Positions 1 through 25,641 of a stretch of DNA of 26,989 nucleotides are shown piece by piece. The notes below the pieces were generated by a model. That model searched no databases and had not been told where the DNA came from. It worked only from the letters and a program-made list of their open reading frames with translations. Where the stretch lies: contig JAGVWA010000009.1 in the NCBI GenBank assembly GCA_018304505.1, positions 1 to 26,989 of the forward strand. Reading direction: 5' to 3'. Made by a program: the position numbers and the translations under genes. Source of the DNA: Nanobdellati archaeon. GTDB taxonomy: Archaea > B1Sed10-29 > JAGVWA01. Each line of letters opens with the position of its first letter. Position 1 is the stretch's first letter.

Positions 1-27
1 TCCTGTTCCTGTTCCGCCGTCCCACAT
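1..27 (-). CDS. Partial (runs off the window edge) small protein starting MWDGGTGTG; member of the Met-Trp-start group
   Basis: The reverse strand reads AAAAGCTATTTATA (BRE/TATA, ~62-75), then GGAGA (RBS-like), then ATG TGG GAC GGC GGA ACA GGA ACA GGA to the window edge. Not in the ORF track. Confidence 0.6.
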
Positions 28-85
28 TAGTTGTCATCTCCGGTATAATTATACATCGTATCTATAAATAGCTTTTGGTAGACTG

Positions 86-454
86 CTAGAAGTTGACCCT
101 GATCGTGTCATCGTCAAAATCAAACTTTTTTTCGTCGGTGATTTTTCGCCACGCGTCGCTGATTCGGCGCAGGGCGCTTGAGAACTCGGTATTGAGATGG
201 TATCTCATTTGTCGCCTGTCCACTATGCCCAGTGACCTCAGCCTGACGAAGACCTTCTGCATCGTGGCCCGAGAAATTGATTTTTCGTTGCAAATTTTGT
301 TAAGGTGGTGGCCTTCGAGGCCGTTCTCGCTTTGTGAAATCGCTTTAATGAGGTGGGCCGCAGCGAACCTGTACTTGTCCTGCTGAGGGTACAGTATCCG
401 TGTTAATTCCTCCAGGGTCATGCCCGTGCTTGGTTTTTGATGATGAAAATCCAC
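86..454 (-). CDS. Winged helix-turn-helix DNA-binding protein
   Basis: 122-aa ORF with a GTG start preceded by GGAG. SRATMQKVFVRLRSLGIVDRRQMRYHL resembles a wHTH recognition helix plus wing. Confidence 0.75.
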   Translation of the reverse strand: MDFHHQKPSTGMTLEELTRILYPQQDKYRFAAAHLIKAISQSENGLEGHHLNKICNEKSISRATMQKVFVRLRSLGIVDRRQMRYHLNTEFSSALRRISDAWRKITDEKKFDFDDDTIRVNF

Positions 455-590
455 GTTAATCGCTCCACACCGCGCGTTTTCCGTTGTTGGTTTGCACTAA
501 ATAGTAAATCAGGGTTTTTAAAACTAGCGGTTCACGTCGGGGGAATAAACCAGCGTGGGTTTAAACTGAAATTTACTAAACCGAGTTAAG

Positions 591-604
591 GAAAGCTTAT
601 ATTT
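591..604 (+). promoter_or_regulatory. Archaeal BRE/TATA promoter of the tRNA
   Basis: GAAAGC-TTATATTT ends about 29 nt upstream of the mature tRNA 5' end. Confidence 0.6.
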
Positions 605-632
605 GTTGAGAAACAAAAGGTAGTTTATAGGT

Positions 633-715
633 GCCAGGGTGCCATAGTCAGGTATTGGGCTCGCCTTAGGAGCGAGTGCCCACGGGCAACGCGGGTTCAA
701 ATCCCGCCCCTGGCG
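633..715 (+). tRNA. trnL: tRNA-Leu (anticodon TAG), class II with long variable arm, CCA not encoded
   Basis: Acceptor stem GCCAGGG/CCCTGGC; anticodon arm CTCGC-CTTAGGA-GCGAG; 14-nt variable region TGCCCACGGGCAAC; T arm GCGGG-TTCAAAT-CCCGC. Confidence 0.93.
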
Positions 716-1040
716 CCTATTTCTCCACCACCCTAATTATGCAATTAGGAGTATAAAAACTTAATTGAAACCAGCGTGGGTTTAAACCAGTTGAAATAGG
801 GCGCGGTAGCAAAATCGTTATAAGGGATGCTTGTTATAATTATCGCGGGCGTTCCAGAAGGAATAGCGAAAGGCAGCACCATAATTGCTAGTTTTAAGGT
901 GAGGAACGATGAAGCTGCCAGTACTATAGTCCGGCAAGCGGGTTGAAGAAAGAAGAATTTGTAAAGGGAATATAAGTCGACCCACAAGTTTATACTGTTT
1001 AGTGTAAACGGGAATTCAGGGGGTGCGCCCGACAACTGCT

Positions 1041-1060
1041 TTCTTACACTAATTAGTGCA
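1041..1060 (+). promoter_or_regulatory. Palindrome-containing 20-mer TTCTTACACTAATTAGTGCA; near-identical inverted copy at 2569-2588
   Basis: 19/20 identity to the reverse complement of 2569-2588; the core CACTAATTAGTG is a perfect palindrome. Confidence 0.6.
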
Positions 1061-1077
1061 AGTATATATATGTACCT

Positions 1078-1204
1078 CTGGGGGGCACGCTTTCTCGACA
1101 ACGGCGTGCCTGCAGAAACCGGGTTGTGCTTGGCCCCAGGAAGGGCCTGGCGGAATTTACTGATTAGTAGAAAACGGGGGCAACCACAGCCAGCTGGCAC
1201 CCAG
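1078..1204 (+). ncRNA. Candidate structured non-coding RNA, unknown family
   Basis: Closing stem CTGGG/CCCAG, hairpin GGCACGCT/GGCGTGCC, and stem GGTTGTG/CACAGCC extended by TTG/CAA and CCCC/GGGG. It lies downstream of TATA-like sequence. Confidence 0.35.
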
Positions 1205-1222
1205 TAGCATGAATTTATAAAC

Positions 1223-1302
1223 TTAAGTAATTTGGGGTTTTACTTAACCTAGGTTAAGTAATTTGGCGTTTTACTTAAGTTGGGTTAAGTGATTGCGGGG
1301 TT
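1223..1302. repeat. 31-bp-period tandem of palindromic TTAAGTAA-N9-TTACTTAA units, including a perfect 22-bp palindrome (1240-1261)
   Basis: Units at 1223-1247 and 1254-1278, plus a degenerate third from 1285; palindrome TTACTTAACCTAGGTTAAGTAA. Confidence 0.85.
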
Positions 1303-1341
1303 GTGGGCCCCGGCCACCGTTGGTCGGTTATGAAGAATCGT

Positions 1342-1445
1342 CATTATAATGATAAAATGGCATTATAATGGGGGAATGACACTACAATGATAAAATGACA
1401 TTACAATGAAAGAATGACATTATAATGAAGAAACGACATTATAAA
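1342..1445. repeat. Tandem array of about 5.5 degenerate 19-bp units with core CATTATAATG
   Basis: Units start at 1342, 1361, 1380, 1399, 1418 and 1437; the core is palindromic. Confidence 0.9.
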
Positions 1446-1608
1446 CCACACCCGGGCACCCCTCCGAGTACATTAGTGTGTGCTGAGCAAAGAGGACGAG
1501 GGGCACAGGGATTTGTAAATTTTGCTGTATACAAAACTTATACAGTTGTATAAAAAGTTTACTCGATTTGTGCTGTGCTAACAGGGCAGGTCAGCGTTTT
1601 ATTATCCA

Positions 1609-1938
1609 TTATGAGTTTTGCCTTTCAAGCTCTTCAAAGTCCCGCAGGGCTTCGAACGCGCTGCCCTTGGTGGTGTCTGATTCTGCGCTTGTCATGGCTG
1701 TTTTCAGTATACTCCTGATTTCAGCGACGCCTTCCGCCCTGTGAACCAGTGAGAATTGTTGGATCGTTGAGTCATTTCCACTATCGATCCGCAGCGAGAC
1801 GCAGGGCTTGGCGTTGCTGGCGGCGATTTGGAAGCTTCCCGTGTCTAGCCTGACGGTTTGTTCCGGGTCCATTTGCTGGGCCAGCGTCGCGTAGAATCCT
1901 GGCGCAGTGCTTTTTGTGGCTTCAAGTTTCACCCACAT
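1609..1938 (-). CDS. Hypothetical protein, 109 aa, Met-Trp start (MWVKLEAT)
   Basis: ATG at 1938 is preceded by a GGAGG RBS embedded in the end of the upstream gene. The track's TTG start at 1953 overlaps that RBS and is unlikely. Confidence 0.75.
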   Translation of the reverse strand: MWVKLEATKSTAPGFYATLAQQMDPEQTVRLDTGSFQIAASNAKPCVSLRIDSGNDSTIQQFSLVHRAEGVAEIRSILKTAMTSAESDTTKGSAFEALRDFEELERQNS

Positions 1939-1940
1939 TT

Positions 1941-2210
1941 TTATTCCTCCCAATCAGTGTCCGAGCCGTCAGGTTCTGGTAAATCAAATGCGCGCATCGC
2001 GACGCTTGCAGGATGAAGCTCAATCATAGGATCGCCGCTATTTGGGACGTGCATTATCTGGCCGCTTCCAAGCAGGTCGAAGCTGCCTCGTTCGGTGTGT
2101 GCCGTGGCGAGGATGCCGCCGCCCCGTGCCGCGATTTCATCTAGGCGCTTTTGAAGCGCGTCTGGCAGTTCATCGTGCCTTTCGTCGTGCCACATTTTAT
2201 CATTCCACAT
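1941..2210 (-). CDS. Hypothetical protein, 89 aa, Met-Trp start (MWNDKMWHDE, two in-frame MW)
   Basis: GGTGA RBS just upstream; middle gene of a tightly packed three-gene operon. Confidence 0.75.
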   Translation of the reverse strand: MWNDKMWHDERHDELPDALQKRLDEIAARGGGILATAHTERGSFDLLGSGQIMHVPNSGDPMIELHPASVAMRAFDLPEPDGSDTDWEE

Positions 2211-2214
2211 TATA

Positions 2215-2535
2215 TCACCAGCGAGTTGGCGTCATTTCGTGGATCGCGTCAAGGGCCCGTTGGGCCTGTTCATGTGGGCTGGCGCCGAGTTCATGAGTTA
2301 ATTCCTGCAGTGCCCGTGTCATGTCGCTATCAGTCAATTTGAGTGTCGTGGTTGTGTCATCAGTGAATGTCTTAATGTAAAGCGCCTCGGGGCCAAGGTA
2401 GTACGCCGTTCCCAGATCGCCTTCAGTGGCACCCCACCTGCCAAGGGCCCGTACCCCCCGGCTGTTGATTTCAGACTGAAACTGCCTTGACAATTCTTGG
2501 TCGCTGCGCGAATGCGCGGTTTGTGTTGTCCACAT
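2215..2535 (-). CDS. Hypothetical protein, 106 aa, Met-Trp start (MWTTQTAH)
   Basis: First gene of the operon; GGGGA RBS-like sequence and an upstream TTCTTATA TATA-like box. Confidence 0.75.
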   Translation of the reverse strand: MWTTQTAHSRSDQELSRQFQSEINSRGVRALGRWGATEGDLGTAYYLGPEALYIKTFTDDTTTTLKLTDSDMTRALQELTHELGASPHEQAQRALDAIHEMTPTRW

Positions 2536-2620
2536 ATGAGTTCCCCATGAAAAGTGCAGAATAACTTATGCACTAATTAGTATAAGAACGTTTTGGCACT
2601 GCGCTGCAGGCCCTGGGCAA

Positions 2621-3232
2621 TTATTCAAATAGCCGCGACCTTGTCACCGCGCCTGTGAGGAGCATGCCAACGATTCCTACACTGAACAGCAGTATGAAGA
2701 GATACCAGGAGAAGGAGGCCACGTCCTGCAGGCCTGTTGCCGTGCTTACTTGGTTTATTGCCGTGACGTCAGTGACGTGTTCGATGCGTGCTGCTTCTGC
2801 GAACTCGCCGACCGTTAATGCGGCCCCAGCAGGGGCTTTGTAGTCGCCGGTTTCCTTGCCTGCTATGAGGAAGTTGTCGCGCGCCCCGAGCGCAACCCCT
2901 GGGGCTTCAGCGTAAGTGTATTTTGGAATTGTAAAGAAAACGAGGCTGGCGAGGAACACGATGAACACAACGGCCATGGCGGGTTTTATTATTTCCGGCG
3001 AGGCGTGATGACCAACAGTAATTGGCTGGTATTTCCTGTGGTGCCTGAACTGGCCTTTCTTGCTGAGTTTTTCGTACTCTTTGTCAGACAGCTGCAGAAT
3101 CAATGGGCCCGTGTATCCGCAGGTGGTGCAGTAGTAATCCTGAGGTAGGCCGAGGCCGAGCAAGGCGCCGGATTCCTTTCTGAGCGACGCATAATCGAGT
3201 TCCCGAGACCCGCATTTTGGGCAGACCTTCAT
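2621..3232 (-). CDS. Membrane protein with N-terminal zinc ribbon
   Basis: CPKCGS...CTTCGY motifs and two hydrophobic transmembrane-like segments; 4-nt ATGA overlap with the upstream gene. Confidence 0.8.
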   Translation of the reverse strand: MKVCPKCGSRELDYASLRKESGALLGLGLPQDYYCTTCGYTGPLILQLSDKEYEKLSKKGQFRHHRKYQPITVGHHASPEIIKPAMAVVFIVFLASLVFFTIPKYTYAEAPGVALGARDNFLIAGKETGDYKAPAGAALTVGEFAEAARIEHVTDVTAINQVSTATGLQDVASFSWYLFILLFSVGIVGMLLTGAVTRSRLFE

Positions 3233-3585
3233 GAAATCACCCGAACCTGCGCCTGTGCCGCTATCGTGTCTGCAACGCGGTCGTACCTGTCTGGGTGCAT
3301 CATCACCTTTACGTCAACTGGATATGCCCCCGGCTCAATGTTGTAGCGTGCGTACAGCGGAAACGGCACAATTTTCTCCTGGCTGGGCTTTATGTAATCG
3401 ATGCGCACGCGCTTTTCCCGTGTCAGCCCCGTCTTGTCGAAACCGAGCATCAGCGGCGTTTTTGTAATTACACTTACCAACTGCGTTTCATTAGAGCGAT
3501 TTTTGATGATCACATTTAGAATTATCGGCGTCTTCTGGCCCATCATGAATCGAATGGGGTTGAGCCTTGTCGTCACGGAAAGCAT
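3229..3585 (-). CDS. Hypothetical protein, probable Ig-like beta-sandwich
   Basis: Alternating hydrophobic strands and an N...IKPSQEK...PGAYPV pattern typical of CARDB/NEW3-like folds (inference). Confidence 0.75.
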   Translation of the reverse strand: MLSVTTRLNPIRFMMGQKTPIILNVIIKNRSNETQLVSVITKTPLMLGFDKTGLTREKRVRIDYIKPSQEKIVPFPLYARYNIEPGAYPVDVKVMMHPDRYDRVADTIAAQAQVRVIS

Positions 3586-3621
3586 ACAAAGCTATTAAAG
3601 CCGCGGCGGTTTAATAACCTT

Positions 3622-4137
3622 ATGGCGGGCGCGTTGAGGGTTTTTCCAAAAGGCATGCCAGAATCAGAGCACGTAATGAGGACTTTTGTCATCCGTGACA
3701 TGGAGCTCCCCCGGGACGTTCTGCTGACGAAACAGTCGCTGCTCCGTTGGATCGCCTTGTCGTTGGGAATTATCAGCGAAAACGAAACCCGGAACACGAT
3801 CCTCCCGATTCTCGACGCATTACTTCACTTTCAAGTGAAAGAGCAAAAACCAGCATCGGCAAGGCAAGTCAAGGAATACCTCGATTCGCACGGGTGGGGT
3901 ATGCGCGACAAAATCGGCCTTGAGTCAAGGGTCACAGAGAAGGCCATCAGCTACCACCTCTCCAAGTTAGTTGACCGCGGAATCCTGCAGCAAGACAAGC
4001 GCAAGTATTCCTTTGCAAGGGACCCGGAAAACCCTGACATAGCCGGGTTCATTGACTTCTACGTCAAAACAAACACAGGCAAGTCCATTTCCAGGGCAAA
4101 GCGCGCCTTTGAAGAACTCAGGAACCTGTACCATTAG
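3622..4137 (+). CDS. Winged-helix (ArsR-like) DNA-binding protein; alternative start at 3655
   Basis: TEKAISYHLSKLVDRGIL HTH motif. The TATA-like TTTAATAA at 3610-3617 fits the ATG at 3655 better. Confidence 0.85.
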   Translation: MAGALRVFPKGMPESEHVMRTFVIRDMELPRDVLLTKQSLLRWIALSLGIISENETRNTILPILDALLHFQVKEQKPASARQVKEYLDSHGWGMRDKIGLESRVTEKAISYHLSKLVDRGILQQDKRKYSFARDPENPDIAGFIDFYVKTNTGKSISRAKRAFEELRNLYH

Positions 4138-4140
4138 AAA

Positions 4141-4680
4141 TTTAGACATAATGGTTTTAATTATTATATCATATCATATTAATTAAATTTTATAAAAGAT
4201 AATTTATTAAATTAATTATAACTAATTAATCTTATCCTTTTTAATTTATAAAATCTAATTTATAAAATGTACTTTCTTAGACGTTCTTTGGCAGATTCTT
4301 AAACAATATTTGCAAAACCGTGCGTGCGTAAAACGGCCCGGAAAGGCCGAATTTGGGCTTTTCAGGGGTGGCTCGTGCGGTCGGCAGGCCCCCATCGGAG
4401 CTAGCCCCGGTTCAGAGGGTTTGGCTAGCCCAATGGCCTTGGCTGCGCCAGAGTGCGGTGGCGGGGCGCTTGGGCGTGGAGTTGCCCGGCACGTTGCGGG
4501 CGCGTAGTGTAAGATTCAAGGGGTGTAGTGTAAGATTCCGCAGGCGTAGTGTAAGACACATTGGGCGTGAGCCTGTGTGTTCCCAACATGGCTGAAAGGG
4601 CGCAGAAAGTGAGACTTAGGTCCAAAAGTTCGTGGTACCTTAAAGCCAAAATGTGAGACCTTGGTGGAATTTGGGGCGCT
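4141..4680. other. Candidate replication origin: AT-rich unwinding-like tract plus 21-bp-periodic repeats
   Basis: 4151-4270 has 11 G/C in 120 nt. GTAGTGTAAGA occurs at 4504, 4525 and 4546. No credible ORF covers the region. Confidence 0.4.
4504..4556 (+). repeat. Three direct repeats of GTAGTGTAAGA with 21-bp period
   Basis: Read directly at 4504, 4525 and 4546. Confidence 0.9.
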
Positions 4681-4707
4681 GATTCCAACAGCAATATTGC
4701 AAAGGGG

Positions 4708-4953
4708 CTATTCGGGCTCGTCGGGGGCGCTTTCAAAGATTTCCGGGTCATTGAAGTCCCTAGTGTCCGGCACATCAAGCCGCTCATAGGAGATGCCCCG
4801 AAGGGCCGAGCCACGTTCAGTTAACTCCATGAGCACCTTATTGCCGTTTTCTGCTAGAACAAGCTTGAATTTGCCCTCTGGTGTCCTGAACCGGACTTCT
4901 TGGCCATGCACCAGCTTGCAGTCTTTCCGGTCAATGGCAATTGCACTCCACAT
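4708..4953 (-). CDS. Hypothetical protein, 81 aa, Met-Trp start (MWSAIAID)
   Basis: TTTATTA TATA-like box about 25 nt upstream, so probably leaderless; acidic C-terminus. Confidence 0.7.
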   Translation of the reverse strand: MWSAIAIDRKDCKLVHGQEVRFRTPEGKFKLVLAENGNKVLMELTERGSALRGISYERLDVPDTRDFNDPEIFESAPDEPE

Positions 4954-5000
4954 AATTAGTTTCCACGCTTGAAGGTAATAAACCTGCTATCGTGGATTGT

Positions 5001-5561
5001 CTACTTGAGCTTGCTGCTAATGATTAAATCGTGCAAATTGTTCAAGGTTTTCCTGGCCATGTCCTGCTTGGGCTTCAACCCAGGCACAATGCTGCCGGGG
5101 TAAACGAGCTGCGAGTACTCGGCATACAGGTCCTCGAGGTCGTTGTACAGCTGCTCGGCGTCCTTTATTTCGGCTCTGCCGAGCATGTCCATGGCCACCC
5201 GTTTCAACTCACCGATGGCGTCACCCATGCCTGTCAGGTATGCTTCGCTCGGCACATTGAGGTTAGGCAGTTTTCTTGATTCATAGAACGAGATCAAGAT
5301 TGCGAGTTCTGCATATTCCTGGTAAGCTGCGCCAAGCATCTGCGCCACTAATTCAGGGTGCTCCTTGTGGCTGGCCTCGAGCTTCCTGATTTTGCCATCG
5401 ATGGTCTGGAGCTGGGCCTTTGCCTCTGCTGTTTTGCCCTTCTGGAATTCCCTGATGGCCTTGGCGCACGCTGGTATGATTTCGCGTGAGTCCTTTATCA
5501 GCTTGTCCCGGACGTCTTGTATTACGTCGAGCTCTTGTTTAATCTGTGCCAGTTTCGTCAT
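5001..5561 (-). CDS. Translin/TRAX-family (C3PO-like) RNA-binding endonuclease
   Basis: AYQEYAE and YLTGMGDAIGELKR motifs plus C-terminal LKPKQD, characteristic of archaeal translin homologs. Confidence 0.9.
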   Translation of the reverse strand: MTKLAQIKQELDVIQDVRDKLIKDSREIIPACAKAIREFQKGKTAEAKAQLQTIDGKIRKLEASHKEHPELVAQMLGAAYQEYAELAILISFYESRKLPNLNVPSEAYLTGMGDAIGELKRVAMDMLGRAEIKDAEQLYNDLEDLYAEYSQLVYPGSIVPGLKPKQDMARKTLNNLHDLIISSKLK

Positions 5562-5781
5562 CGAGAACTTTAGCTCCGGGGTTGTTTATTATACCTTCTG
5601 TACCCCTGATTGCAAACAGGGGCTCGCCGTGTACCCCTGGCTCTAAGGCTAGCGTTTTCGGGTCATACGCCACCAGGTGTTGTACACCCCGCGAATCCCT
5701 GACGCCAACTACCGAGAAATCCGGCCTCTGAGCCCTGATTGTGTTAGTAAGGGCGCTGCCAAAAATGTTGTTTTCCCACAT
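5539..5781 (-). CDS. Hypothetical protein, 80 aa, Met-Trp start (MWENNIFG)
   Basis: A GAGGTGA RBS lies 8 nt before the ATG at 5781; the track's GTG at 5793 lies within that RBS. The 3' end overlaps the translin start by 23 nt. Confidence 0.7.
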   Translation of the reverse strand: MWENNIFGSALTNTIRAQRPDFSVVGVRDSRGVQHLVAYDPKTLALEPGVHGEPLFAIRGTEGIINNPGAKVLDDETGTD

Positions 5782-5789
5782 GTTATTTT

Positions 5790-6080
5790 TCACCTCTTAT
5801 TCGGAATTTTTTCCTCGCCCTGATACAAAAGCGTGTACCGCAGGGCTTCGCCGCGCGCGTCTACCTGGATTTGTTTTACTTCATGGAGCCATGCGTCCCG
5901 GGGCTCGGGCGCGGTGTGGTTCCGGTCGTCGAATTCTAAAGGCACCCAAAACGCGCCTTCATTGACGTTGCGCAGCTCGATTTTGCCATCTTGTTGTTTT
6001 GCAATGACGCGTGACTGGCCGATCATTTCAAATGTCTCGCTGTATAATGGGTGCCCCTCTGTCACCGTTGTTTTCCACAT
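5790..6080 (-). CDS. Hypothetical protein, 96 aa, Met-Trp start (MWKTTVTE)
   Basis: GAAACC-TTTAAATA promoter and GAGG upstream; the stop codon overlaps the RBS of the next MW gene. Confidence 0.75.
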   Translation of the reverse strand: MWKTTVTEGHPLYSETFEMIGQSRVIAKQQDGKIELRNVNEGAFWVPLEFDDRNHTAPEPRDAWLHEVKQIQVDARGEALRYTLLYQGEEKIPNKR

Positions 6081-6157
6081 AAGCCTCTAGAGAGTATCTG
6101 TGCAAAAACATATTTAAAGGTTTCTGCATGCGGCGCGGCTCCCCAGAACCCAGGGGG

Positions 6158-6556
6158 TTAAAAAAGCCTTAAGGCATCGTTGGGCCTAATGATTTTTATA
6201 CCTCTAAATGTGTCAATGCTAGTCAAATGCTTGTCATAGCTTATAATGTAGTCTGAAGATGATGCAATGGCACATTCTAAAATTTTGTTATCATCTGGGT
6301 CGTCTTTAACAACTTCAAGTTTCTCATTTGGTTCTATAAGTTTAATAAATGTAAAGAGGATCTCGGTTATCTGCTCAACAGCGTCTGCATTGTAATCAAA
6401 ATCCCTCTTTAGCACATTCTGGAATTCTTGCAGGGCGGCAACAGAAGAAAAAATTTCAACGTCCCTTTCAATGAAGTTATACAGCATCTTCTGAGCAACG
6501 CTGCCGTCCCACAGGATAGCTGAGATAAGTACATTGGTGTCAAGGACGACCCGCAA
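6158..6556 (-). CDS. PIN-domain toxin (VapC-like, putative type II TA toxin)
   Basis: RVVLDTNVLISA, DDPDDNKILECA and IISYDKHL motifs; likely TTG start at 6556, just after the antitoxin stop. Confidence 0.92.
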   Translation of the reverse strand: MRVVLDTNVLISAILWDGSVAQKMLYNFIERDVEIFSSVAALQEFQNVLKRDFDYNADAVEQITEILFTFIKLIEPNEKLEVVKDDPDDNKILECAIASSSDYIISYDKHLTSIDTFRGIKIIRPNDALRLF

Positions 6557-6557
6557 A

Positions 6558-6827
6558 CTACCGCCGCCTTTGTTTTTCAATAATACCTTGGATGTCTTCC
6601 TCTCTTATTCCCCGTGCTTCCAATCGTTTTTTCCCTTGCTTTGCAATGCTTTTAAGTTTACTGATTAATTCTTCTTTTGAGGGCAGGTCTATGCGCTTGA
6701 GTATAACCATGTCCGCGCTGCTTATTACAGCAAACACCGTGCCTTCTGTTGCATGAATCATTGCTCGTGTGCTCTGGGGAATAACGATTTGGCCTTTCGA
6801 GGACATCCTTACTGTTTCGACACTCAC
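6558..6827 (-). CDS. AbrB/MazE/SpoVT-family antitoxin
   Basis: MSSKGQIVIPQSTR signature; directly upstream of the PIN gene. Confidence 0.92.
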   Translation of the reverse strand: MSVETVRMSSKGQIVIPQSTRAMIHATEGTVFAVISSADMVILKRIDLPSKEELISKLKSIAKQGKKRLEARGIREEDIQGIIEKQRRR

Positions 6828-6842
6828 ATCTCTCCCTCGGTA

Positions 6843-6880
6843 TTCTTACTTTCTTACTTTAAGAATGTTCTATTATATAA
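6843..6880 (-). promoter_or_regulatory. TA operon promoter with tandem TTCTTACT x2 putative operator
   Basis: TTTATATAA TATA box on the minus strand at ~6873-6881 and a direct repeat at 6843-6858 near the expected transcription start. Confidence 0.45.
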
Positions 6881-6932
6881 AGTTTCCTTCTAGAAGCGGC
6901 GCGGTCAAGTTATCTCAGCTGGGCCCGCGCGG

Positions 6933-7259
6933 TTAGAAGAGCAGCAGCTGCCTTTCTGTGCGATCCCGGCGTGCGAGTTCTGGGTGCCACACTGCTTCTT
7001 GTTTAATCCTGTAGTTTTCCGCGTCACGCTGGGCTTGTGCAGCTGCAACCCGCGCGTCATTCCCGGTCATCTCAAAGGCCTCTCTGACGGCGCCACCCGG
7101 CCCATCGATCGTAAGAATTGTGAACCCGTCTAATTGACCGTCTTTGATAAATGCCCTTGATCGGGGGTGCAGTTGCAGGGCAGGTGTCGAGTTTATTCTG
7201 TCTTGCAGCGTCTGCGGCAGGGTGCCTTTCTCTGCGGTGTGATAACTAATTTTCCACAT
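6933..7259 (-). CDS. Hypothetical protein, 108 aa, Met-Trp start (MWKISYHT)
   Basis: AAAAGCG-TTAAATA promoter about 22 nt upstream (leaderless). Confidence 0.75.
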   Translation of the reverse strand: MWKISYHTAEKGTLPQTLQDRINSTPALQLHPRSRAFIKDGQLDGFTILTIDGPGGAVREAFEMTGNDARVAAAQAQRDAENYRIKQEAVWHPELARRDRTERQLLLF

Positions 7260-7284
7260 GGGCTATTTAGGGTAGAAATGGTAT

Positions 7285-7692
7285 TTAACGCTTTTTCTTC
7301 CCACGACGTGCTTTCACAGGTGCTTTGAGTGCAGCTGTTTTTTTCGCGGGTGTTTTGCGCATCGGCTTCTTTACCTCGGTCTTGAGTTCCTCGATTTCCC
7401 GCATTAGGCGCTTCTTTTCTAAGCGTTCCTCGTACCCGTGTTCCTCTTGCTCTTCCAGGGCAACATAAGCGTTGGCGATGCCGAAAACTATGCCGAAGAA
7501 ACTCACTATGCCGAGAATGAGGTCTTGTATCACGATTGCGAAGAAGAACAGCACCGCGCTAGGCAAAAAAAACGCCACACTGGCTGGAAAGCCGATGTGC
7601 TTTTTCCTGCTGGTGGCGATTTCTATTGACTCAACCAGAAGTGCTGCCCCGAGGAGGAGCGCCGCTGCGTACGCGATGTCATAAAGTGCCAT
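7285..7692 (-). CDS. Membrane protein with three TM helices and a basic C-terminal tail
   Basis: Hydrophobic N-terminal half and K/R-rich tail; the ATG at 7692 lies about 22 nt after a TTTTTAAA box. Confidence 0.8.
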   Translation of the reverse strand: MALYDIAYAAALLLGAALLVESIEIATSRKKHIGFPASVAFFLPSAVLFFFAIVIQDLILGIVSFFGIVFGIANAYVALEEQEEHGYEERLEKKRLMREIEELKTEVKKPMRKTPAKKTAALKAPVKARRGKKKR

Positions 7693-7815
7693 GCTTAACA
7701 AACGGGGCGTTGTTTAAAAAAGCTTTCTGTCATAAACAGCGAAAACCCGCCCAACCAAGTTATTTATAAAGGTTGCTTTTTTTTGTGCAACTTCCGGGCG
7801 ACAAAGAACAGGGGG

Positions 7816-7873: not shown

Positions 7874-7927
7874 AGATCCCCGATTCTCTTAGTGGGGTTT
7901 TTTTTGCTGTTGTTTTGTTTGGGGGTT

Positions 7928-18046: not shown

Positions 18047-18051
18047 GGTTT

Positions 18052-18315: not shown

Positions 18316-18490
18316 GTAAATCCCCCAATGATCTTGTTAATCACGGCGCCTTTAAATACGTTTTGGTTGCTTTGCCGAGCCGATCGCACGGGCCTGTTTT
18401 GTCCCACTGAGCCCGGGGCACGCAACCCAATGAGCATGTAAGCCAGCGAGCACGAGTTATTTATATGTGAAAGGGTACAAGTAGCTGTGC

Positions 18491-18937
18491 ATGCTCATTA
18501 ATAATTACAAGAAGAAGAACATTCAGGGCGCGGCCATAGAGCTACGCTTGGGCAGCCTGTACAAGCAGGACAAGGGCACAGTAGACATTCTTGAGGGCAA
18601 ATGGCCCGATGCGAAGGAAATCCTCATAGAAGAAAAGCCGTACACGCTCAAGCCGGGCGAGTTTATCCTTGGTAAGACGATTGAGAGTTTCGACGTGCCC
18701 GACGACCTGGCGGCGCTTGTCGTTCCTAGGTCCACGATCTTCAGGATGGGCATTGAGTCGTCTACTGGTTTTGTCGATCCGGGTTACCAGGGCGAACTTG
18801 TAGTCCCGATGAAGAATGTTGGCGAAAACCCCATTTTGTTAAAGCATGGCATGGCCGTCGTCAAGGTCATCTTCCTTGAGGTAAAAGGGGGCACCATACC
18901 GTTGTTTACAAGATACATGGGCGGAAAGGTTGTGTGA
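18491..18937 (+). CDS. dUTPase/dCTP deaminase superfamily protein, probably a dUTPase
   Basis: LKPGEF, PRST and VDPGYQG motifs. The position after DPGYxG where dCTP deaminases carry the catalytic Glu reads GELVVPM. Confidence 0.88.
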   Translation: MLINNYKKKNIQGAAIELRLGSLYKQDKGTVDILEGKWPDAKEILIEEKPYTLKPGEFILGKTIESFDVPDDLAALVVPRSTIFRMGIESSTGFVDPGYQGELVVPMKNVGENPILLKHGMAVVKVIFLEVKGGTIPLFTRYMGGKVV

Positions 18938-18940
18938 GTT

Positions 18941-19270
18941 ATGATCCTTGGGCATGACGATTTACTCAGAAGAATGGCTGGCATCGAGAGCACTAAGCTT
19001 GAAAAGGTGTTTCGGCTGATGGCCAAGCACTCGCTTTCTGAGCTGAGGTTGCGCGCGCTAAAGCAGCTGGCAGAGCTTAAGGTGGCGACCATTGGCAGCG
19101 TTTTAACTGAATTGAAGGAAACGACCAGCGGCGGCACGTTTATCTCAATCAGGGACTTTTTCAACGCGCTCAAAAAAGAGGGCATCCTTTCGTCAAAGAA
19201 GGTCGGCAAAACCACCTATTGGGAAATAAGCGATGCGGCCAAGGAGCTCGAAAAGTACCTTTTGTCATAA
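18941..19270 (+). CDS. Winged-helix transcriptional regulator
   Basis: FNALKKEGILSSKKVGKTTYWEI helix-plus-wing pattern. Confidence 0.78.
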   Translation: MILGHDDLLRRMAGIESTKLEKVFRLMAKHSLSELRLRALKQLAELKVATIGSVLTELKETTSGGTFISIRDFFNALKKEGILSSKKVGKTTYWEISDAAKELEKYLLS

Positions 19271-19356
19271 TTTTCGAAACCCTCCGGGGCACAACGTGAA
19301 TTGCCGAAGCTACTGTTTATATACTAGATCCTTACATAAATGTAATTAAACCTTCT

Positions 19357-19402
19357 GTTGGGTGGGAACAGGATTACCCACATGGTCCTAATCTCACCCA
19401 AC
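19357..19402 (+). ncRNA. Candidate small RNA hairpin with loop CCCACA
   Basis: Stems GTTGGGTGGGA/TCTCACCCAAC and AGGATTA/TGGTCCT with three G-U pairs that form only on the + strand; TTTATATA box about 35 nt upstream. Confidence 0.45.
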
Positions 19403-19599
19403 TAAAATTCGGAAGAATTAGCTCGCCCAGCCAAAACGCAAGCAAAAAAAAAACCGAAAATGTAAGGCCACCTTCTCAAGGACGGCAGTCTTATTCTGCC
19501 GATCCTTGTCCCGTTTCTCTCGGTACAAAAGCAACGCAAAAAAGCGGTATTAGCTAAGCATTTATACACCAACACCCACAAGTAAAGCGGGGTTGGGAA

Positions 19600-21225
19600 A
19601 TGGCATTAGAGAACTTCACAGAACAAGAAAGGCAAATTCTCAGCAAATATGTAACCAACCTCGACTCGGATGTTTATTGCGTAAAGAATCTGCCAGAGGA
19701 AGTTGTTGCGGTGCTGTTTGCATACGTGTCAAGGAGCAACAACACCTTCCGGCAAAACCTGTTAAAACTATTAGGCAGCGGCGAAATCAGTATTTCTAGT
19801 AGAGACAGCACATACAGTGACGACATTTATTCAGAAGACGCGACAGCCAAGGCCAAAAAGACAGCCAAGGAATTCCACGAAAAATGGGTAGTCGGTTACG
19901 GCCACGCAAGCGTTGCAGAACACGCGGACGTGAAGATCGCCATCGATTCATTATCAAACGTGGCCACGAAAATGGTGGAACACAACCGCCTCGGCAGGTA
20001 CACAGAGAAATCCAGCAGATACGTAAAATTCAGCAAGGACAATTACTACACCCCCCCAAAAATCGCGCGTGACGAATCCTTCTCCAAGAAATACAAGGAA
20101 GCCTGTGACCACCTGCTCGACACGTACGACGATTTATACGACAAGATCGTGGCGTATGTAATGGAACGCATGCCCCAAGAGAAGGGGGTTTCCGACGGCG
20201 CATACAAGTCCAGCGTAAAGGCAAAAACGTGCGACGTCGTCAGATACCTATTGCCGGCATCTACAATAACCAGCGTCGGGGTCAGCATGAACGCCCGCGC
20301 ACTCGCATACTCAATAAAGCAGCTCCTCTCAAGTCCCCTCGAGGAATTCCAAGAGCTGGGGCAAAAAATAAAGACGGAGGCAGAGCTAATCTGCCCCGCG
20401 CTGCTCAAGTATGCCGAATTCGATCCAATGATGCACGACGTGCCACTGGCGGCACGCAAATTGGCGGATTTCGTTTTTGTCGGGACCGAAATTGAAAAAC
20501 CAAGAAGGCCAGTAGAGCTAGTACACTATGACAAAGACGTGGTAGACAAAATCGCAGCATCAATTCTGTACAAGCATTCAAATCTGCCATATCATCAGGT
20601 ATACGAACGCGTACAAAAAATGTCAAGTCAAGAAAAAGAAAAAATCTTCGACACATATCACCTGAGCAAAGGCAAATTCAACATTCCGCTCGAGGAATTC
20701 GAGCATGGGAACTTCACTTTTGACATGATAATGGACTTCGGTGCATTCAGGGACGTGCAGAGGCACAGGACTTGTATTCAAAGTGATCAGCTAATCACCG
20801 CAGACCATGGATACGACACACCAGAGGACATAATAAAAGCAGGCTGCCAGAAGCAATACCAGGCAGCGATGGAAAAAGCAGCACAGGCCTACAACGCAAT
20901 CAGGAAAAAGTATCCCCACGAGGCGCAGTACGTAGTGCCCAATGGCTATCGAAAACGCGTCCTCATTACGTGGGATCTCAGGGGGCTTGAAAACTTCATT
21001 CGCCTGCGATCAAGCCCACACGGCCACGAATCCTACAGGCGAATCGCGCAGCAGACCTACGACGAGCTCGCCAGAATTTCACCACTGCTTGTCAAGTACC
21101 TGAGCGTGGACAAGAACGAGTACTATCTCGGTCGCCTTAAATCGGAAGTGGCGAAGCACGAAAAGATCGACGAATTAAAAAAGAAGTATGGCGAGCAAGC
21201 CGTAGTAACAGAAGGAAACCAGTAA
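19600..21225 (+). CDS. thyX: FAD-dependent thymidylate synthase ThyX (tandem two-domain form)
   Basis: GYGHASVAEH, YTEKSSRY, DVVRYLLP, RDVQRHR and FIRLRS motifs. Confidence 0.95.
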   Translation: MALENFTEQERQILSKYVTNLDSDVYCVKNLPEEVVAVLFAYVSRSNNTFRQNLLKLLGSGEISISSRDSTYSDDIYSEDATAKAKKTAKEFHEKWVVGYGHASVAEHADVKIAIDSLSNVATKMVEHNRLGRYTEKSSRYVKFSKDNYYTPPKIARDESFSKKYKEACDHLLDTYDDLYDKIVAYVMERMPQEKGVSDGAYKSSVKAKTCDVVRYLLPASTITSVGVSMNARALAYSIKQLLSSPLEEFQELGQKIKTEAELICPALLKYAEFDPMMHDVPLAARKLADFVFVGTEIEKPRRPVELVHYDKDVVDKIAASILYKHSNLPYHQVYERVQKMSSQEKEKIFDTYHLSKGKFNIPLEEFEHGNFTFDMIMDFGAFRDVQRHRTCIQSDQLITADHGYDTPEDIIKAGCQKQYQAAMEKAAQAYNAIRKKYPHEAQYVVPNGYRKRVLITWDLRGLENFIRLRSSPHGHESYRRIAQQTYDELARISPLLVKYLSVDKNEYYLGRLKSEVAKHEKIDELKKKYGEQAVVTEGNQ

Positions 21226-21249
21226 GCTCCGAGGACGGTGAACTAAAAT

Positions 21250-22497
21250 ATGTTGTACAGTGAAATCCAAAAGGTAGACCCTGAGGTGTACGAGTCGTTG
21301 AAAAACGAGCTGCAGCGCCAGCGAAACAGTTTGGAAATGATCGCGTCAGAAAACTTCACAAGCCCGGCAGTAATGGAAGCCCAAGGCTCAATAATGACAA
21401 ACAAGTACGCGGAAGGCCTCCCAGGCAAGCGATACTACGGAGGCTGTGAATTCCATGACCAGGTAGAGCAGCTGGCAATCGACCGCGCCAAGGCCCTGTT
21501 CAAGGCAGACCACGCAAACGTTCAGCCACACTCTGGCAGCAACGCGAATTTCGCGGCCTACTTTTCAGTCCTAGAAGCGGGCGACAAAATTCTCGGCCCG
21601 CTTCTTCCGCATGGGGGGCACTTAACGCACGGCTCGCCAGTGAACTTCTCTGGTAGGCTCTTCAAGTTCTCGCAATACACACTGAATCAGGACACGCAGC
21701 GTTTTGAACCAGACGACATACTCGAAATCGCAAGACGAGAAAAACCCAAACTCATCCTGACAGGCTATTCCGCATACCCCAGAAAAATAGAATTCGAAAA
21801 GTGGCGTGCAGTTGCAGATGAAGTCGGCGCGGTGCTGATGGCCGACATCGCGCACATCGCAGGCCTCATTGCAGCAGAACAGCATCCGCAGCCCTTTCCG
21901 CACTGTGACATCGTGACGACCACGACGCACAAAACCCTGCGGGGGCCGCGAGGCGGCATAGTAATGTGCACTGAGAAGTATGCGAAGCAAGTTGACAAAA
22001 CCGTGTTCCCTGGCTTCCAAGGCGGGCCATTGATGCACGCCATTGCCGGAAAAGCAATAGCGCTTAAGGAGGCGCAGTCAGCAGAGTTCAGAAAATACGC
22101 GGAGCAGGTCGTGAAAAATGCGCATGCCCTGGCAGATGAACTAATGAGCAACGGCTTCAACCTCGTAACCGGCGGCACCGATAGTCATCTAATGTTAGTG
22201 AACCTCGAGTCAAAATCAATTACAGGAAAGGAAGCCGAGGTCCTGTTAGAGCAAGTCGGGATAACGGCGAACAAGAACATGGTCCCTGACGACAAGCAGA
22301 GCCCGTTTGTCACCTCAGGAATTCGGTTGGGCACCCCGGCCATCACAAGCCGCGGTATGAAGGCAGACCAAATGAGGCAGATCGGCGAGTTCATTTCAAG
22401 GACAATGAACTATCGCAATGACGAAGAACAGAAGAGAAAAATCAAAAACGAGGTTCTGGAAATCTGCAAGGCGTTCCCGTTGTATCCTGATTTTTAG
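21250..22497 (+). CDS. glyA: Serine hydroxymethyltransferase (bacterial-like)
   Basis: [39 protein letters not shown] and SGIRLGTPA motifs. Confidence 0.98.
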
Positions 22498-22606
22498 GGG
22501 TACAGCATAGCAGCAAAGCACAGGCAAGTGGCGTAAGATCCATAGTGCGATTCCTTTTTCCGTCTAGCTTTCCCGAGGGCCGCCTTGTTGATGGACATTG
22601 CAATCA

Positions 22607-23353
22607 TCACTGCATGTAATCTTTATAAATCCGCACTGCCTCGTTGCGGCTGTGTTCAATGCTGACGCCAGCGTCGAGATATTCAACGCGGCTGCCACGG
22701 GATTCAAAAATCTCACGCAGTTCTTTTCCCTCGTATATTGGTTTCAACTTAAGCTGGAAGTCAAGTTTCTCGAAAATCGCGTTGTCATCCTTCCCCCTGT
22801 TTTCTAGGCGTTTCATGACCTCGTCAACGTTCTTGATGGTAGGAATAATCAGTAAGTCAGGCGCGTATTCCAGGGCCAGCTTGTTCCCAGAAAAGTTCAT
22901 GATGTCTTCAAGTGAAAGTTCGGATCCTTCTTCCTTTGCCTGCAATTGCTGATATGCAAGTGAACTGATTACGCCGCGGCTCTGTAGCACGGTTTTTGCG
23001 TTTTCAAAACACGGAATGAGCAGGCGCTTGTACAGGCAAAGGCGGTCGAGGGAATAAGCCAGTGCAGTGTCGCGTGCAGTGTATTGCCTGTTGTTCTCTG
23101 CAATGATTTCGTTACGGATCATCAGGCCAAGGCATGCGTAAGTTGGCTCATGCTCATGTGACACGATCACGTCATGCTTTTTCAGCTGTTCGTATTCTGG
23201 GTGGTCTTTGTGTGTTTCCCAATAGTCATTTAGGTCGTAAACGTCTTTCCCCTGTTGTTTTTCGTAATCAACAAGCGCGCCGAGAGCAACGCCTTTCCCA
23301 ACGCCATCGAGGCCGTCAAGCATTACGAATTTTCCGGGAAGTCCTTTTGGCAT
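22607..23353 (-). CDS. tmk: Thymidylate kinase
   Basis: P-loop DGLDGVGKG, HEP, SLDR and SRGVISSLAYQ; adjacent to thyX and glyA. Confidence 0.88.
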   Translation of the reverse strand: MPKGLPGKFVMLDGLDGVGKGVALGALVDYEKQQGKDVYDLNDYWETHKDHPEYEQLKKHDVIVSHEHEPTYACLGLMIRNEIIAENNRQYTARDTALAYSLDRLCLYKRLLIPCFENAKTVLQSRGVISSLAYQQLQAKEEGSELSLEDIMNFSGNKLALEYAPDLLIIPTIKNVDEVMKRLENRGKDDNAIFEKLDFQLKLKPIYEGKELREIFESRGSRVEYLDAGVSIEHSRNEAVRIYKDYMQ

Positions 23354-23415
23354 TTCACGTCACCATTATTCATTAGGCGGCACAGATATATAACACTTTA
23401 ACTCTAAATCAGTGC

Positions 23416-23622
23416 ATGGGCGTGCTGGATTTCATGAAGGGGAAACCGAAGGATGAAACGGTCGAGGAAGAAGAGCCGGAATCTGAATCGGCAACCGGGC
23501 CCGTGTCGATGCACGAGTGCCGCTTGTGTGGGGGCAAGGGCGCGGACAAGAAGTTCGGGGGAATGCACTGGCACAAGAAGTGCTTGCGGAAAGCGCGGAA
23601 GATGGCGAAGGGCGCGATGTGA
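23416..23622 (+). CDS. Small putative zinc-binding protein
   Basis: CRLC...WHKKC motif; TATATAA box about 22 nt upstream. Confidence 0.75.
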   Translation: MGVLDFMKGKPKDETVEEEEPESESATGPVSMHECRLCGGKGADKKFGGMHWHKKCLRKARKMAKGAM

Positions 23623-24399
23623 TTATAATGGATTTTGGCTATTCAACTTAGTGGATACTGTCGAGAGCACGTATGCCGAAACGTCTTTAAAGGGTGGAAC
23701 CCGGGGAATTAGGCCGCCAAGTTCGGGCTCCCATATTTTCTCAATCTTTATCAATGAGGCATCAAACTTTTTCAAGTCAAGTTTTTCGTTATACATTGAG
23801 AGCTTTTTGTTGACCAGTTCTGGGTCAAGTTCAGTTCCTTTTTTCAAGAGGAAGTATGTGTCGTATAAGTCTCGGGCGAGCCCCCTTGTTGTTATTGCCC
23901 TGATTTTTTCTGCAAGCGTTTCCTCTTTTTTCATTACCGGGACGGTAAAAGGTCTTACATCGTCATACATTGGAATCACTTCCAGGATTTCCGGTTTTAG
24001 CACAATGTCTTTCCTCAGCGAAATGTCTATGTCGACAACCGTCTTGTTGATGGGTAATTTGTAAAGGGGCCCCTCGATTTTTACCTTTATTTTCTTGCCC
24101 AGTACTGATTTTACATCTTTGATTTCATGTGTTGCACCAATAAGGCCGAGCATTTCTGAGATGCTTGTTTTTAATTTGTTATGGTCATATTCTGCTGTCT
24201 GCGTAAAATCCAGGTCTTCAGAAAATCTATCGAGTCCGCGGAAAAAGAAGAGGGCTGTGCCCCCCTTGAACACCAGCTCGTCAACGATGTACGAGTAGAT
24301 GCCAGAGAGCACCAAGGTCTGAGCATAGTGTTTTTCCTGTTGGTGTGGCTTGAGCTTGTTTATTCTCGCCAGGCGCAAAATTTCGTCTGAGTTGATCAT
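23623..24399 (-). CDS. abiEii: AbiEii-family nucleotidyltransferase toxin (type IV TA)
   Basis: LVFKGGTAL, RFSEDLDF, AEKIRA and RDLYD motifs. Confidence 0.94.
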   Translation of the reverse strand: MINSDEILRLARINKLKPHQQEKHYAQTLVLSGIYSYIVDELVFKGGTALFFFRGLDRFSEDLDFTQTAEYDHNKLKTSISEMLGLIGATHEIKDVKSVLGKKIKVKIEGPLYKLPINKTVVDIDISLRKDIVLKPEILEVIPMYDDVRPFTVPVMKKEETLAEKIRAITTRGLARDLYDTYFLLKKGTELDPELVNKKLSMYNEKLDLKKFDASLIKIEKIWEPELGGLIPRVPPFKDVSAYVLSTVSTKLNSQNPL

Positions 24400-24402
24400 T
24401 CA

Positions 24403-24936
24403 TTATCCCCTGTTTAGTTTTACCCGTGTTTTTTTAGCATATGAAATCAGTTTGGCGCGGTCTGCTTTTTTCAAGATGTTGCCAGGAACTGCTCCTTGTT
24501 TGTATATGATATCTATAATGGCCTTTTCAACGTCTGCAATTGATATTTCATGTCCAGCATACGGTTTTTTTTCAAATCCAAATACCATGTCAACTGGTAG
24601 TGTTATGAATTCAATTCCATCAACGTGTCTGCGAGTTCGTTTTGGTACCACTATTTGCACCACAGCCGGAATTTGGTTTATGATGCCATGGAGATAGAGG
24701 GCCGAGTTGAATGAGATATATGAGTTTGGAATGATATAAGAGCCGTAGTAGACGGGGTCTTCAGTGGTCGAATATAGTCCCTTAGCAAGCCGAAACAGTA
24801 GTTTTTTATCAGTCATTCTCTTAGCGTATGTCTTAGCATGACCACGTTTTACGTTAAGGGCGCGGGCTATTTCAGCCACATTGAACACAGGGGTTTTTCT
24901 TTTCCGAAGGATTTCGAGGCCAGCGTAGATATTCAT
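24403..24936 (-). CDS. abiEi: AbiEi-family antitoxin (type IV TA)
   Basis: N-terminal wHTH with RLAKGLY, YISFNSALYLHGIINQIP and EKAIID; upstream of abiEii. Confidence 0.9.
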   Translation of the reverse strand: MNIYAGLEILRKRKTPVFNVAEIARALNVKRGHAKTYAKRMTDKKLLFRLAKGLYSTTEDPVYYGSYIIPNSYISFNSALYLHGIINQIPAVVQIVVPKRTRRHVDGIEFITLPVDMVFGFEKKPYAGHEISIADVEKAIIDIIYKQGAVPGNILKKADRAKLISYAKKTRVKLNRG

Positions 24937-25207
24937 ACAATATTTGGGTATTCAGCATATATAAAGGTATGGCTCCAGGGTAACAATTTAGTTACCGTGG
25001 CGCCAGTTTGTAAATGGGGCGTAAATTATGCTACTTGCGTGCAATATGGCGAAGGGCGCGATGTGATGAACCGATAAACTCGGGCTGGTTTGTGAATGCT
25101 TTATAAATAAGAACGTTCATAAACATATCAATCAGTGTGTCACTGTTATTTAGATGCACCCTAGCGATGTTAGGTCTCTTTATGGCAGAGGCACACCTTC
25201 AAGTAAA

Positions 25208-25351
25208 CTATTTTTTGAATATTCCATCATAAACCTTAATTGCAGATTCCAGATTGAATTTTGTTGGCTTGATTAATCCCTGTCTTGCGCACCCTGAAAT
25301 TATATCTGCATACAGAACAGTCTTATTCTCATGTATTGAGCTAGTTCCCGT
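25208..25351 (-). pseudogene. Possible C-terminal gene remnant without a start codon
   Basis: Open stretch TGTSSIHENKTVLYADIISGCARQGLIKPTKFNLESAIKVYDGIFKK preceded by an in-frame TAG. It is loosely like the DUF3800 C-terminal ADxxAG motif. Confidence 0.25.
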
Positions 25352-25398
25352 CTAGTGGTTTTGGGTTTATTTTAGGCGTTGTTTTGTTTTAGAAGTTG

Positions 25399-25641
25399 TT
25401 ATCTAGTAAAGTGTTCCGGCCTGATTTCTTCTTCGAAGCCGTAGAGTATTATCGTGCCAGTTTCTACGTCCTTGACGATCCTGTCTGCGAACGGTCCAAT
25501 GCGGTCTTTGCTGTTTATCAGTGCGTGCTGCATTGTGCGCACAGACTCCCTGTCGCCGTTTCCAAATCGCACTTCATACTCTGGTTCTTGTGCTACCATG
25601 ACTTCGAATTCGTGTATTCCTGTTACGTTTTCATACCACAT
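25399..25641 (-). CDS. Hypothetical protein, 80 aa, Met-Trp start (MWYENVTG)
   Basis: TTTTTATA box and GTGATG RBS-like sequence upstream. Confidence 0.72.
   Translation of the reverse strand: MWYENVTGIHEFEVMVAQEPEYEVRFGNGDRESVRTMQHALINSKDRIGPFADRIVKDVETGTIILYGFEEEIRPEHFTR

Follow-up and report, generated by a model that had tools for sequence, protein, structure and literature searches.

The contig JAGVWA010000009.1 of a Nanobdellati archaeon (GenBank assembly GCA_018304505.1), analysed here over its whole length of 26,989 nucleotides and referred to as the window, carries nine small genes whose products begin with Met-Trp (MW). These genes belong to a genome-wide class with 75 strict members, or up to approximately 93 when hidden starts and GTG or TTG starts are included, which corresponds to approximately 7–9% of the genes and is restricted to this genome. 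We tentatively read the class, with a probability of roughly 0.4, as a fast-evolving and lineage-specific set of proteins that would carry a selected, fold-independent Met-Trp tag acting at the protein level and read by a putative partner. The source genome (917 kb on 21 contigs, estimated to be 92.8% complete, the window being the whole of contig C11) is that of a small-genome archaeon with promoters made of a B recognition element (BRE) and a TATA box, intron-containing tRNAs, and an archaeal 16S rRNA.

Met-Trp starts are enriched among small proteins

Second residues were tabulated genome-wide using a crude open reading frame (ORF) caller of our own, in which ORFs of at least 50 codons were scored by codon log-odds, selected greedily without overlap, and started at the first ATG. 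Trp follows the first ATG in 75 of 1016 ORFs (7.4%), while it makes up 0.83% of all residues, an 8.9-fold enrichment at residue 2 (binomial p = 3e-45); internal Met residues are followed by Trp in 40 of 5432 cases. Broken down by size, MW starts account for 14/95 ORFs of 50–80 aa, 43/151 of 80–110 aa, 14/155 of 110–150 aa, and 4/599 of at least 150 aa, i.e. 71 of 401 below 150 aa against 4 of 599 larger ones (Fisher odds ratio 32, p = 2.5e-25). No other residue is as common as Trp at position 2 in the small proteins of the source genome, and 78 of the 121 in-frame MW dipeptides of the proteome lie at residues 1–3. Elsewhere, residue 2 displays a depletion of Phe, Tyr, and Cys together with the ordinary excess of Lys, Ala, and Thr. 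The original prediction, that MW starts would exceed background in short orphan genes relative to larger ones, is therefore borne out: the pattern is real and class-specific.

A count that needs no gene caller gave the same picture, with TGG as the top codon following the ATG in GGTGA-N3-10-ATG-NNN sites (23 of 225). Among genes led by a Shine–Dalgarno (SD) motif, Trp at residue 2 (W2) was found in 28 of 87 small proteins but in none of the 78 with at least 150 aa. The strict class also underestimates the total: in nine further ORFs an MW is hidden no more than 20 residues after an in-frame ATG, with an SD motif that fits the MW start in at least four of them, and a GTG-TGG or TTG-TGG start is probable in nine small ORFs.

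An explanation by chance, or by errors in gene calling or binning, has next to no probability. It could appeal to the crudeness of our caller and to the number of ATGTGG hexamers in the window, which is at background (16 observed, 12.1 ± 3.5 expected); the anomaly is the placement of ATGTGG at gene starts and not the number of hexamers. It is effectively refuted by the binomial probability and the agreement of the caller-free count. MW genes are also interleaved with core genes on the same contigs, and the same pipeline returned 1/376 MW starts in a relative of the same order (336 kb) and 0/345 in a relative of the same class (322 kb). Furthermore, all eight complete MW genes of the window are present in their MW-start versions as exact entries in a collection of 15 billion proteins, from which a version extended to 1612–1953 is absent, so other gene callers had picked the same starts.

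MW proteins are small, acidic, and without recognizable domains

MW proteins have approximately 50–155 residues and are acidic, hydrophilic, and Arg-rich. Their median isoelectric point (pI) is 4.9, compared with 8.1 in the remaining small proteins and 7.8 in large proteins, and 61 of 89 (hidden starts included) have a pI below 5.5. Asp, Glu, and Arg are raised in their composition and Lys and Ile are lowered; residues 3–16 are rich in Asp, Asn, Glu, Thr, and Gln. The earlier description of the window proteins as soluble-looking and nearly free of Cys extends to the class, with a median grand average of hydropathy (GRAVY) of −0.57 and 0.6% Cys against 1.1%. Reading of the sequences together with the GRAVY values revealed no Sec or Tat signal, i.e. 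no positive region followed by a hydrophobic core, in MW proteins.

Scanning 74 MW proteins against Pfam gave matches just in a few large ones (thioredoxin/DsbA, AAA ATPases, and DUF655). Each family listed in PHROG and PADLOC scans of the same set was matched by at most one of the 74 proteins, with no match at all for the first window member of the set. The PHROG matches that carry an annotation (clamp loader, transposition protein, ABC transporter) are consistent with the large AAA MW protein.

Trp at residue 2 is retained while the remaining sequence diverges

In an alignment of 74 MW proteins, M1 and W2 are the sole invariant positions. BLAST and phmmer linked five MW–MW pairs, and the proteins are otherwise mutually unrelated in sequence. 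W2 is kept in all five pairs, with identities of 28% and 43% in the two pairs that were aligned. Two further paralogues keep the Trp behind a GTG start, their N-termini aligning to GTG-TGG; because of these, the constant element is Trp (TGG) after any start codon, rather than ATGTGG.

Such a pattern could also be inherited. MW proteins may descend from a single family or a small number of families in which tandem duplication was followed by divergence so deep that the kinship is no longer visible, with W2 kept as a structural keystone, as in effector families that are related in structure but not in sequence. We consider this unlikely, although 30 of the 75 MW genes have an MW neighbour (often 1–8 nt apart) and residue 4 is often Ile, Thr, or Val. 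With the HMMER filters switched off, weak MW–MW matches outnumbered those to decoys (27 vs. 4 at E ≤ 0.1 and 71 vs. 35 at E ≤ 1), and there is probably some deeper family structure among these sequences. A hidden superfamily was nevertheless not recovered: jackhmmer with reversed-sequence decoys added no members to the known pairs, a helical seed chosen by hand retrieved itself alone, and hhalign of paralogue profiles A2 and A3 returned a probability of 0.2%. Lengths from 51 to 153 aa also speak against a common origin.

The predicted structures point in the same direction. One MW protein was modelled as an alpha-helical hairpin (predicted local distance difference test, pLDDT, of 87) with residues 1–3 outside the helix, and a fold search with this model returned generic hairpins and no PDB match at E ≤ 0.001. 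For the MWKI protein (6936–7259; proteins from the window are named here by their first four residues), a single-sequence AlphaFold2 prediction (pLDDT 53) has an N-terminal strand at low confidence and no hairpin, and the ESM Atlas model of the MWSA protein (4708–4953; pLDDT 0.48) has no usable look-alike. By eye, many MW proteins read as strand-turn-strand. A confident hairpin with W2 outside its helix, set against these, argues against shared ancestry with a structural Trp, and the models suggest that at least some MW proteins differ in fold.

The class is restricted to the source genome

The phylum comprises 31 species genomes, among which the source genome is alone in its family. A pattern of SD motif plus ATGTGG occurs 23 times in the source genome (2 for the reversed-pattern control) and 0–10 times in the other 30, and the regions around the pattern matches in five relatives contain no comparable genes. 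With a tighter pattern applied to 251 archaeal genomes, the source genome has 12 occurrences in 0.92 Mb and the next best has 6 in 1.6 Mb. The relatives examined are thus without the pattern.

Searches with three MW queries and one paralogue profile gave a similar result. A word-indexed search of 5.8 billion clusters found the MWKI protein itself alone, with none in 40 relatives, and the same type of search with the paralogue profile A3 found the query proteins alone. Neither of the two paralogue profiles has relatives in viral contigs. The MWVK protein (1612–1938), searched with HMMER against 1.8 billion representatives, matched itself and, weakly, two giant repeat proteins of 2011 and 1342 aa (E = 1e-5 and 9e-5, with 5–7 matched stretches each), and it could share a repeat unit with large proteins of the surface type. 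The lineage is poorly sampled, as the translin-family neighbour of the window MW genes is at most 54% identical to its nearest relatives, and the orphan status of the class is therefore partly a matter of sampling. Among the titles and abstract openings of the literature retrieved, there was no account of an enrichment of Trp at residue 2 or of an MW protein class.

MW genes have a distinct mRNA architecture

An SD-like motif precedes 36 of 67 MW genes, compared with 107 of 339 other small genes and 141 of 527 large ones (27–32% of other genes). TATA boxes lie 35–60 nt upstream in MW genes, and peak at approximately 30 nt upstream of the ATG in other genes. Taken together, these sequence features suggest that most transcripts of the organism are leaderless and that MW genes are preferentially leadered, with an SD motif. 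Most MW genes do have an SD motif or TATA box of their own, as had been noted for the window. The tetramer TGCA is enriched upstream of MW genes but coincides with the expected start of transcription, where the simplest reading is an initiator element of leadered promoters; it was discarded as a class-specific signal.

This architecture is compatible with a signal in mRNA or translation, where the start codon plus UGG would be a cis element that co-regulates a gene set, an explanation that we judge to be unlikely. The first peptide bond could be gated on charged tRNA-Trp in an organism unable to make Trp, or an RNA-binding factor or small RNA could recognize (N)UGUGG at the start. Since a single codon encodes Trp, the data fit equally well at the hexamer itself, and indole-3-glycerol phosphate synthase (Trp biosynthesis) was not found in the 92.8%-complete genome. 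The bases around ATGTGG, however, have no conserved sequence (at most 0.5 bit per position), and the 16S rRNA has no CCACAT and an ordinary anti-SD 3′ end (GATCACCTCCT). The source genome also has tRNA-Trp and two class Ib aminoacyl-tRNA synthetase genes, and Trp is not avoided in the rest of the MW proteins. The +2-frame GTG of the MW starts opens short ORFs only (median of 7 codons), which leaves no dual coding. Finally, as none of the 78 large SD-led genes has TGG as its second codon, W2 is not a general enhancer of initiation. As the original prediction stated, signals in the protein and in the nucleotides are not separable from sequence alone; this still holds, with the nucleotide option narrowed by the missing flanking conservation, the missing 16S complement, and the large SD-led genes.

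Two observations on RNA genes are added here. The single tRNA-Trp gene (C3:106320–106457, anticodon CCA, 64-nt intron, identified by ARAGORN) is situated approximately 160 nt from the MW gene 106003–106158 and 2 kb from another, which may be coincidence. The 16S rRNA gene (C15:18912–22046) appears split by at least two insertions, one with an ORF containing a helix-turn-helix (HTH) domain (Pfam HTH_3) and another with an ORF that by eye resembles a LAGLIDADG homing endonuclease; its true 3′ end is found approximately 1.7 kb beyond the main match, and three tandem MW genes lie just upstream of the rRNA.

A proposed Met-Trp tag on the protein

We favour a signal on the protein, in which the Met-Trp N-terminus would be under selection at the protein level. 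With Trp as the second residue, the initiator Met is not removed by methionine aminopeptidase; it would stay in place and leave a free, hydrophobic Met-Trp end. One common partner may read this end as a recognition tag irrespective of the fold behind it and decide the turnover, the docking, or the delivery of MW proteins. The genes themselves would form an accessory repertoire that evolves fast, is dispensable, and lies between conserved genes, in most cases with a promoter of its own and an SD-led mRNA for each gene. The data establish the class, its properties, its restriction to the source genome, and the retention of W2 in paralogues; a protein signal, a single reader, and a role for that reader are our inference. 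Class-specific enrichment, mutual unrelatedness beyond five pairs, W2 kept in those pairs and in the GTG paralogues, and relatives without the pattern support the original prediction of a selected mark on divergent proteins. The shift in pI and the residue bias point to a coherent class, one with no shared sequence beyond residue 2. Proteasome alpha and beta subunits and two M24 peptidases are encoded in the source genome, the machinery that a stability tag would need.

Variation within populations bears on how strongly the class is constrained. Strain differences were read from contigs of four DNA runs; no RNA run is listed for the window, which does not bear on its expression. In one soil-metagenome population (run X2, a 9.6-kb contig) there are 11 differences, all within 2122–2491 and spanning two tandem MW genes, and none across the next 4.9 kb (2536–7400). 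Five of these single-nucleotide polymorphisms (SNPs) fall in the gene at 1941–2210, including a nonsense change of codon 7 (TGG to TGA), and six in the gene at 2215–2535 (three non-synonymous and three synonymous). A minor contig adds five differences in 1609–1938 and another run adds one in 6933–7259, giving a total of 11 non-synonymous and 6 synonymous differences. This suggests weak constraint on, or dispensability of, some MW members, and the SNP cluster may reflect either a hot spot at this locus or recombination that brought in another allele. Dedicated hypervariation by a diversity-generating retroelement was rejected, the strain variants being scattered single substitutions and no reverse transcriptase (PF00078) being found in the source genome. 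The label "hypervariable", used in the original prediction, is thus weakly supported: it is in line with the SNP cluster in three tandem MW genes of one population, and not with the 0–1 differences in the other five MW genes of the window or with the lack of a reverse transcriptase.

Several points weigh against a protein-level tag. The class is known here from DNA sequence, called by a crude procedure that takes the first ATG, and with a single Trp codon a protein and an RNA signal are inseparable here. There are no orthologues outside the source genome, so the conservation of W2 rests on seven paralogue pairs, and the structural diversity on one confident and one poor model. MW genes seem weakly constrained (11 non-synonymous to 6 synonymous differences and a nonsense allele), which is difficult to square with strong selection on the function of each one of them. 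The source genome yielded no candidate reader: ClpS (PF02617) was not found at 92.8% completeness, while 5 of 14 reference genomes gave a match in a control search, and FtsK/SpoIIIE matches are marginal and cover the P-loop only (three matches over approximately 20–27 profile positions, the best scoring 23.6 bits, or 24.5 with its frame neighbours, at a cut-off of 24).

Comparison with known systems

The class shares features with several known systems, and the MW signature is not explained by any of them; their testable defining features are either lacking here or gave no clear outcome. In the oomycete RxLR, Plasmodium PEXEL, and powdery-mildew Y/F/WxC effectors, the motif follows a classical signal peptide and lies 20–60 residues into the protein. 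These repertoires resemble MW proteins in consisting of dozens to hundreds of small, fast-evolving, lineage-specific, and mutually dissimilar proteins with a very short N-terminal motif in a presumed host-dependent organism. They differ in that the MW mark is formed by the first two residues without a hydrophobic leader, in an archaeon, and in that MW proteins are known from their genes alone. The archaeon is presumably host-dependent, and a bolder proposal is that MW is a new archaeal sorting signal: a leaderless two-residue tag on approximately 90 effector-like proteins for delivery to a partner cell or docking on a dedicated machine, as a prokaryotic counterpart of the RxLR and PEXEL codes. 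We regard this as distinctly unlikely.

A two-residue signal is biochemically plausible, as Met-Trp belongs to the class of Met-hydrophobic N-degrons. In these degrons of the eukaryotic Arg/N-degron pathway, as in the bacterial N-degrons read by ClpS, a free N-terminus and one or two residues are recognized. We know of no archaeal N-recognin; ClpS was not found here, and known degrons sit on scattered proteins and not on a large gene class.

WXG100/Esx proteins of type VII secretion are likewise acidic, approximately 100 aa long, without a signal peptide, and often encoded in tandem; one MW model is a hairpin, and Esx chains are among the non-significant fold matches of this model. In contrast, the 74 MW proteins have no WXG100 Pfam match, no fold match was obtained at E ≤ 0.001, and the source genome yielded no clear EssC-type ATPase. 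In MW proteins the conserved Trp occupies residue 2 instead of a hairpin turn, and many members do not look helical.

Mycobacterial PE/PPE proteins also take a large share of the genome and form a lineage-specific class whose name comes from two N-terminal residues. Unlike MW proteins, they are families of true homologues with conserved N-terminal domains of approximately 110 and 180 aa, whereas MW proteins share two residues. Prokaryotic genes in general favour Lys (AAA) and Ala (GCN) at the second codon, a mild preference that is strongest in highly expressed genes. The MW pattern is a codon 2 bias as well, but one of 8.9-fold for Trp, in small orphan genes only and in the source genome only.

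If 7–9% of the genes are indeed defined by a two-residue N-terminal mark, current annotation has missed a recognition or regulatory system of this lineage, one that would act on the "dark matter" of small proteins dominating small-genome archaea. The tag would then provide an experimental handle, since mutants of it can be made, its reader can be fished for, and metaproteomes can be screened for its presence; such work could reveal the roles of the orphan proteins and any interaction with a host. Were the signal translational instead, it would represent a new class-specific start-codon context. Either way, the class yields a simple rule for correcting start sites and for recognizing its members in related genomes.

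Genomic setting of the MW genes

MW genes are found on 15 of the 21 contigs, interleaved with housekeeping genes, toxin-antitoxin pairs, and HTH genes. They could have come from a foreign or mobile gene pool (a virus, a plasmid, or another lineage-specific element), MW being the expression convention of that element, which we think very unlikely. Their composition is unlike that of resident genes (GC content of 0.505 vs. 0.472, and Arg favoured over Lys), but their GC content at third codon positions is lower, not higher, than in resident genes. They adjoin toxin-antitoxin and HTH genes, yet are scattered among housekeeping genes, and a Pfam scan of ten neighbours of MW genes showed nothing mobile. 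The small proteins have no PHROG match and no consistent PADLOC family, and the two paralogue profiles are without relatives in viral contigs. No reverse transcriptase was found, and the k-mers enriched over the 60 nt that follow the stop codons of MW genes correspond just to the promoter of the next gene or to its ATGTGG, with no repeated 3′ cassette site.

Two loci speak for mobility. A duplicated segment links C15:1–2017 with C17:4123–5943. Both copies contain two larger genes without a match in Pfam, together with one of two paralogous MW genes, and no other repeated unit of several genes that includes an MW gene was seen. In the window, the MW gene at 4708–4953 lies in a stretch that breaks the gene order of relatives. 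In the four loci, among those listed for relatives, that display this arrangement, a 118-aa gene and a gene for a zinc-ribbon membrane protein are located on one side of the translin-family gene. The source genome (2621–5561) has approximately 1.4 kb between these two genes, consisting of a winged HTH gene, an ORF-free stretch, and the MW gene 4708–4953, and two more MW genes are found on the opposite side of translin.

MW genes in the window

The nine MW starts of the original prediction are all present, as eight complete ORFs and the ATGTGG of an ORF at the contig edge, all on the minus strand. The edge ORF (1–27) comprises the first nine codons of a gene (MWDG) with ATGTGG at 22–27 and a TATA-like box and GGAGA upstream. 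The last 99 bases of contig C13 are identical to window bases 1–99, which identifies this ORF as the start of a complete 71-aa MW gene on C13 and the two contigs as adjacent in the genome; the MW cluster of the window therefore runs on into three more MW-type genes on C13. Ends of 99 nt are also common to three other contig pairs (C5/C13, C8/C21, and C18/C19).

A tandem trio with intergenic gaps of 2 and 4 nt occupies 1609–2535. It begins with a 106-aa gene (MWTT; 2215–2535), followed by an 89-aa gene (MWND; 1941–2210) with a GGTGA SD motif upstream and a second in-frame MW at codons 6–7; its 89-aa and 84-aa start versions are both in public gene calls. Third in the trio is a 109-aa gene (MWVK; 1609–1938) with a GGGAGG SD motif upstream. 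The ORF list supplied with the sequence stretches this gene to a TTG at 1953 and the gene at 5539–5781 to a GTG at 5793, and the two hidden MW starts that had been proposed within them are real.

Immediately downstream of the translin-family gene is an 81-aa MW gene (MWSA; 4708–4953). On the other side, an 80-aa gene (MWEN; 5539–5781) has an AGGTGA SD motif upstream and overlaps the translin start by 23 nt at its 3′ end; its product is an exact entry and a cluster representative in the protein collection. Next to it is a 96-aa gene (MWKT; 5790–6080), which has a BRE/TATA of its own (TTTAAATA) at a distance of 38 nt upstream of its start codon. A 108-aa gene (MWKI; 6933–7259) has a TATA-like box approximately 30 nt upstream. 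The 80-aa gene at 25399–25641 (MWYE) has a TATA box 45 nt upstream and an SD-like GTGATGA element, and a 75-aa variant with an internal deletion is found in another assembly.

Other features of the window

The stretch at 4138–4707 (approximately 570 nt) contains just overlapping short frames and no convincing ORF, and has no Rfam match even at E ≤ 1. Between the MW genes, at 6158–6827, a PIN-domain gene (Pfam PIN_3, E = 7e-21) and the small gene upstream of it overlap. The small gene has no Pfam match but by eye looks like an AbrB/SpoVT-type antitoxin, and the two resemble a toxin-antitoxin pair. The serine hydroxymethyltransferase gene at 21250–22497 has mostly bacterial best matches among species genomes, with identities of at most 62%, which suggests that it was acquired from bacteria.

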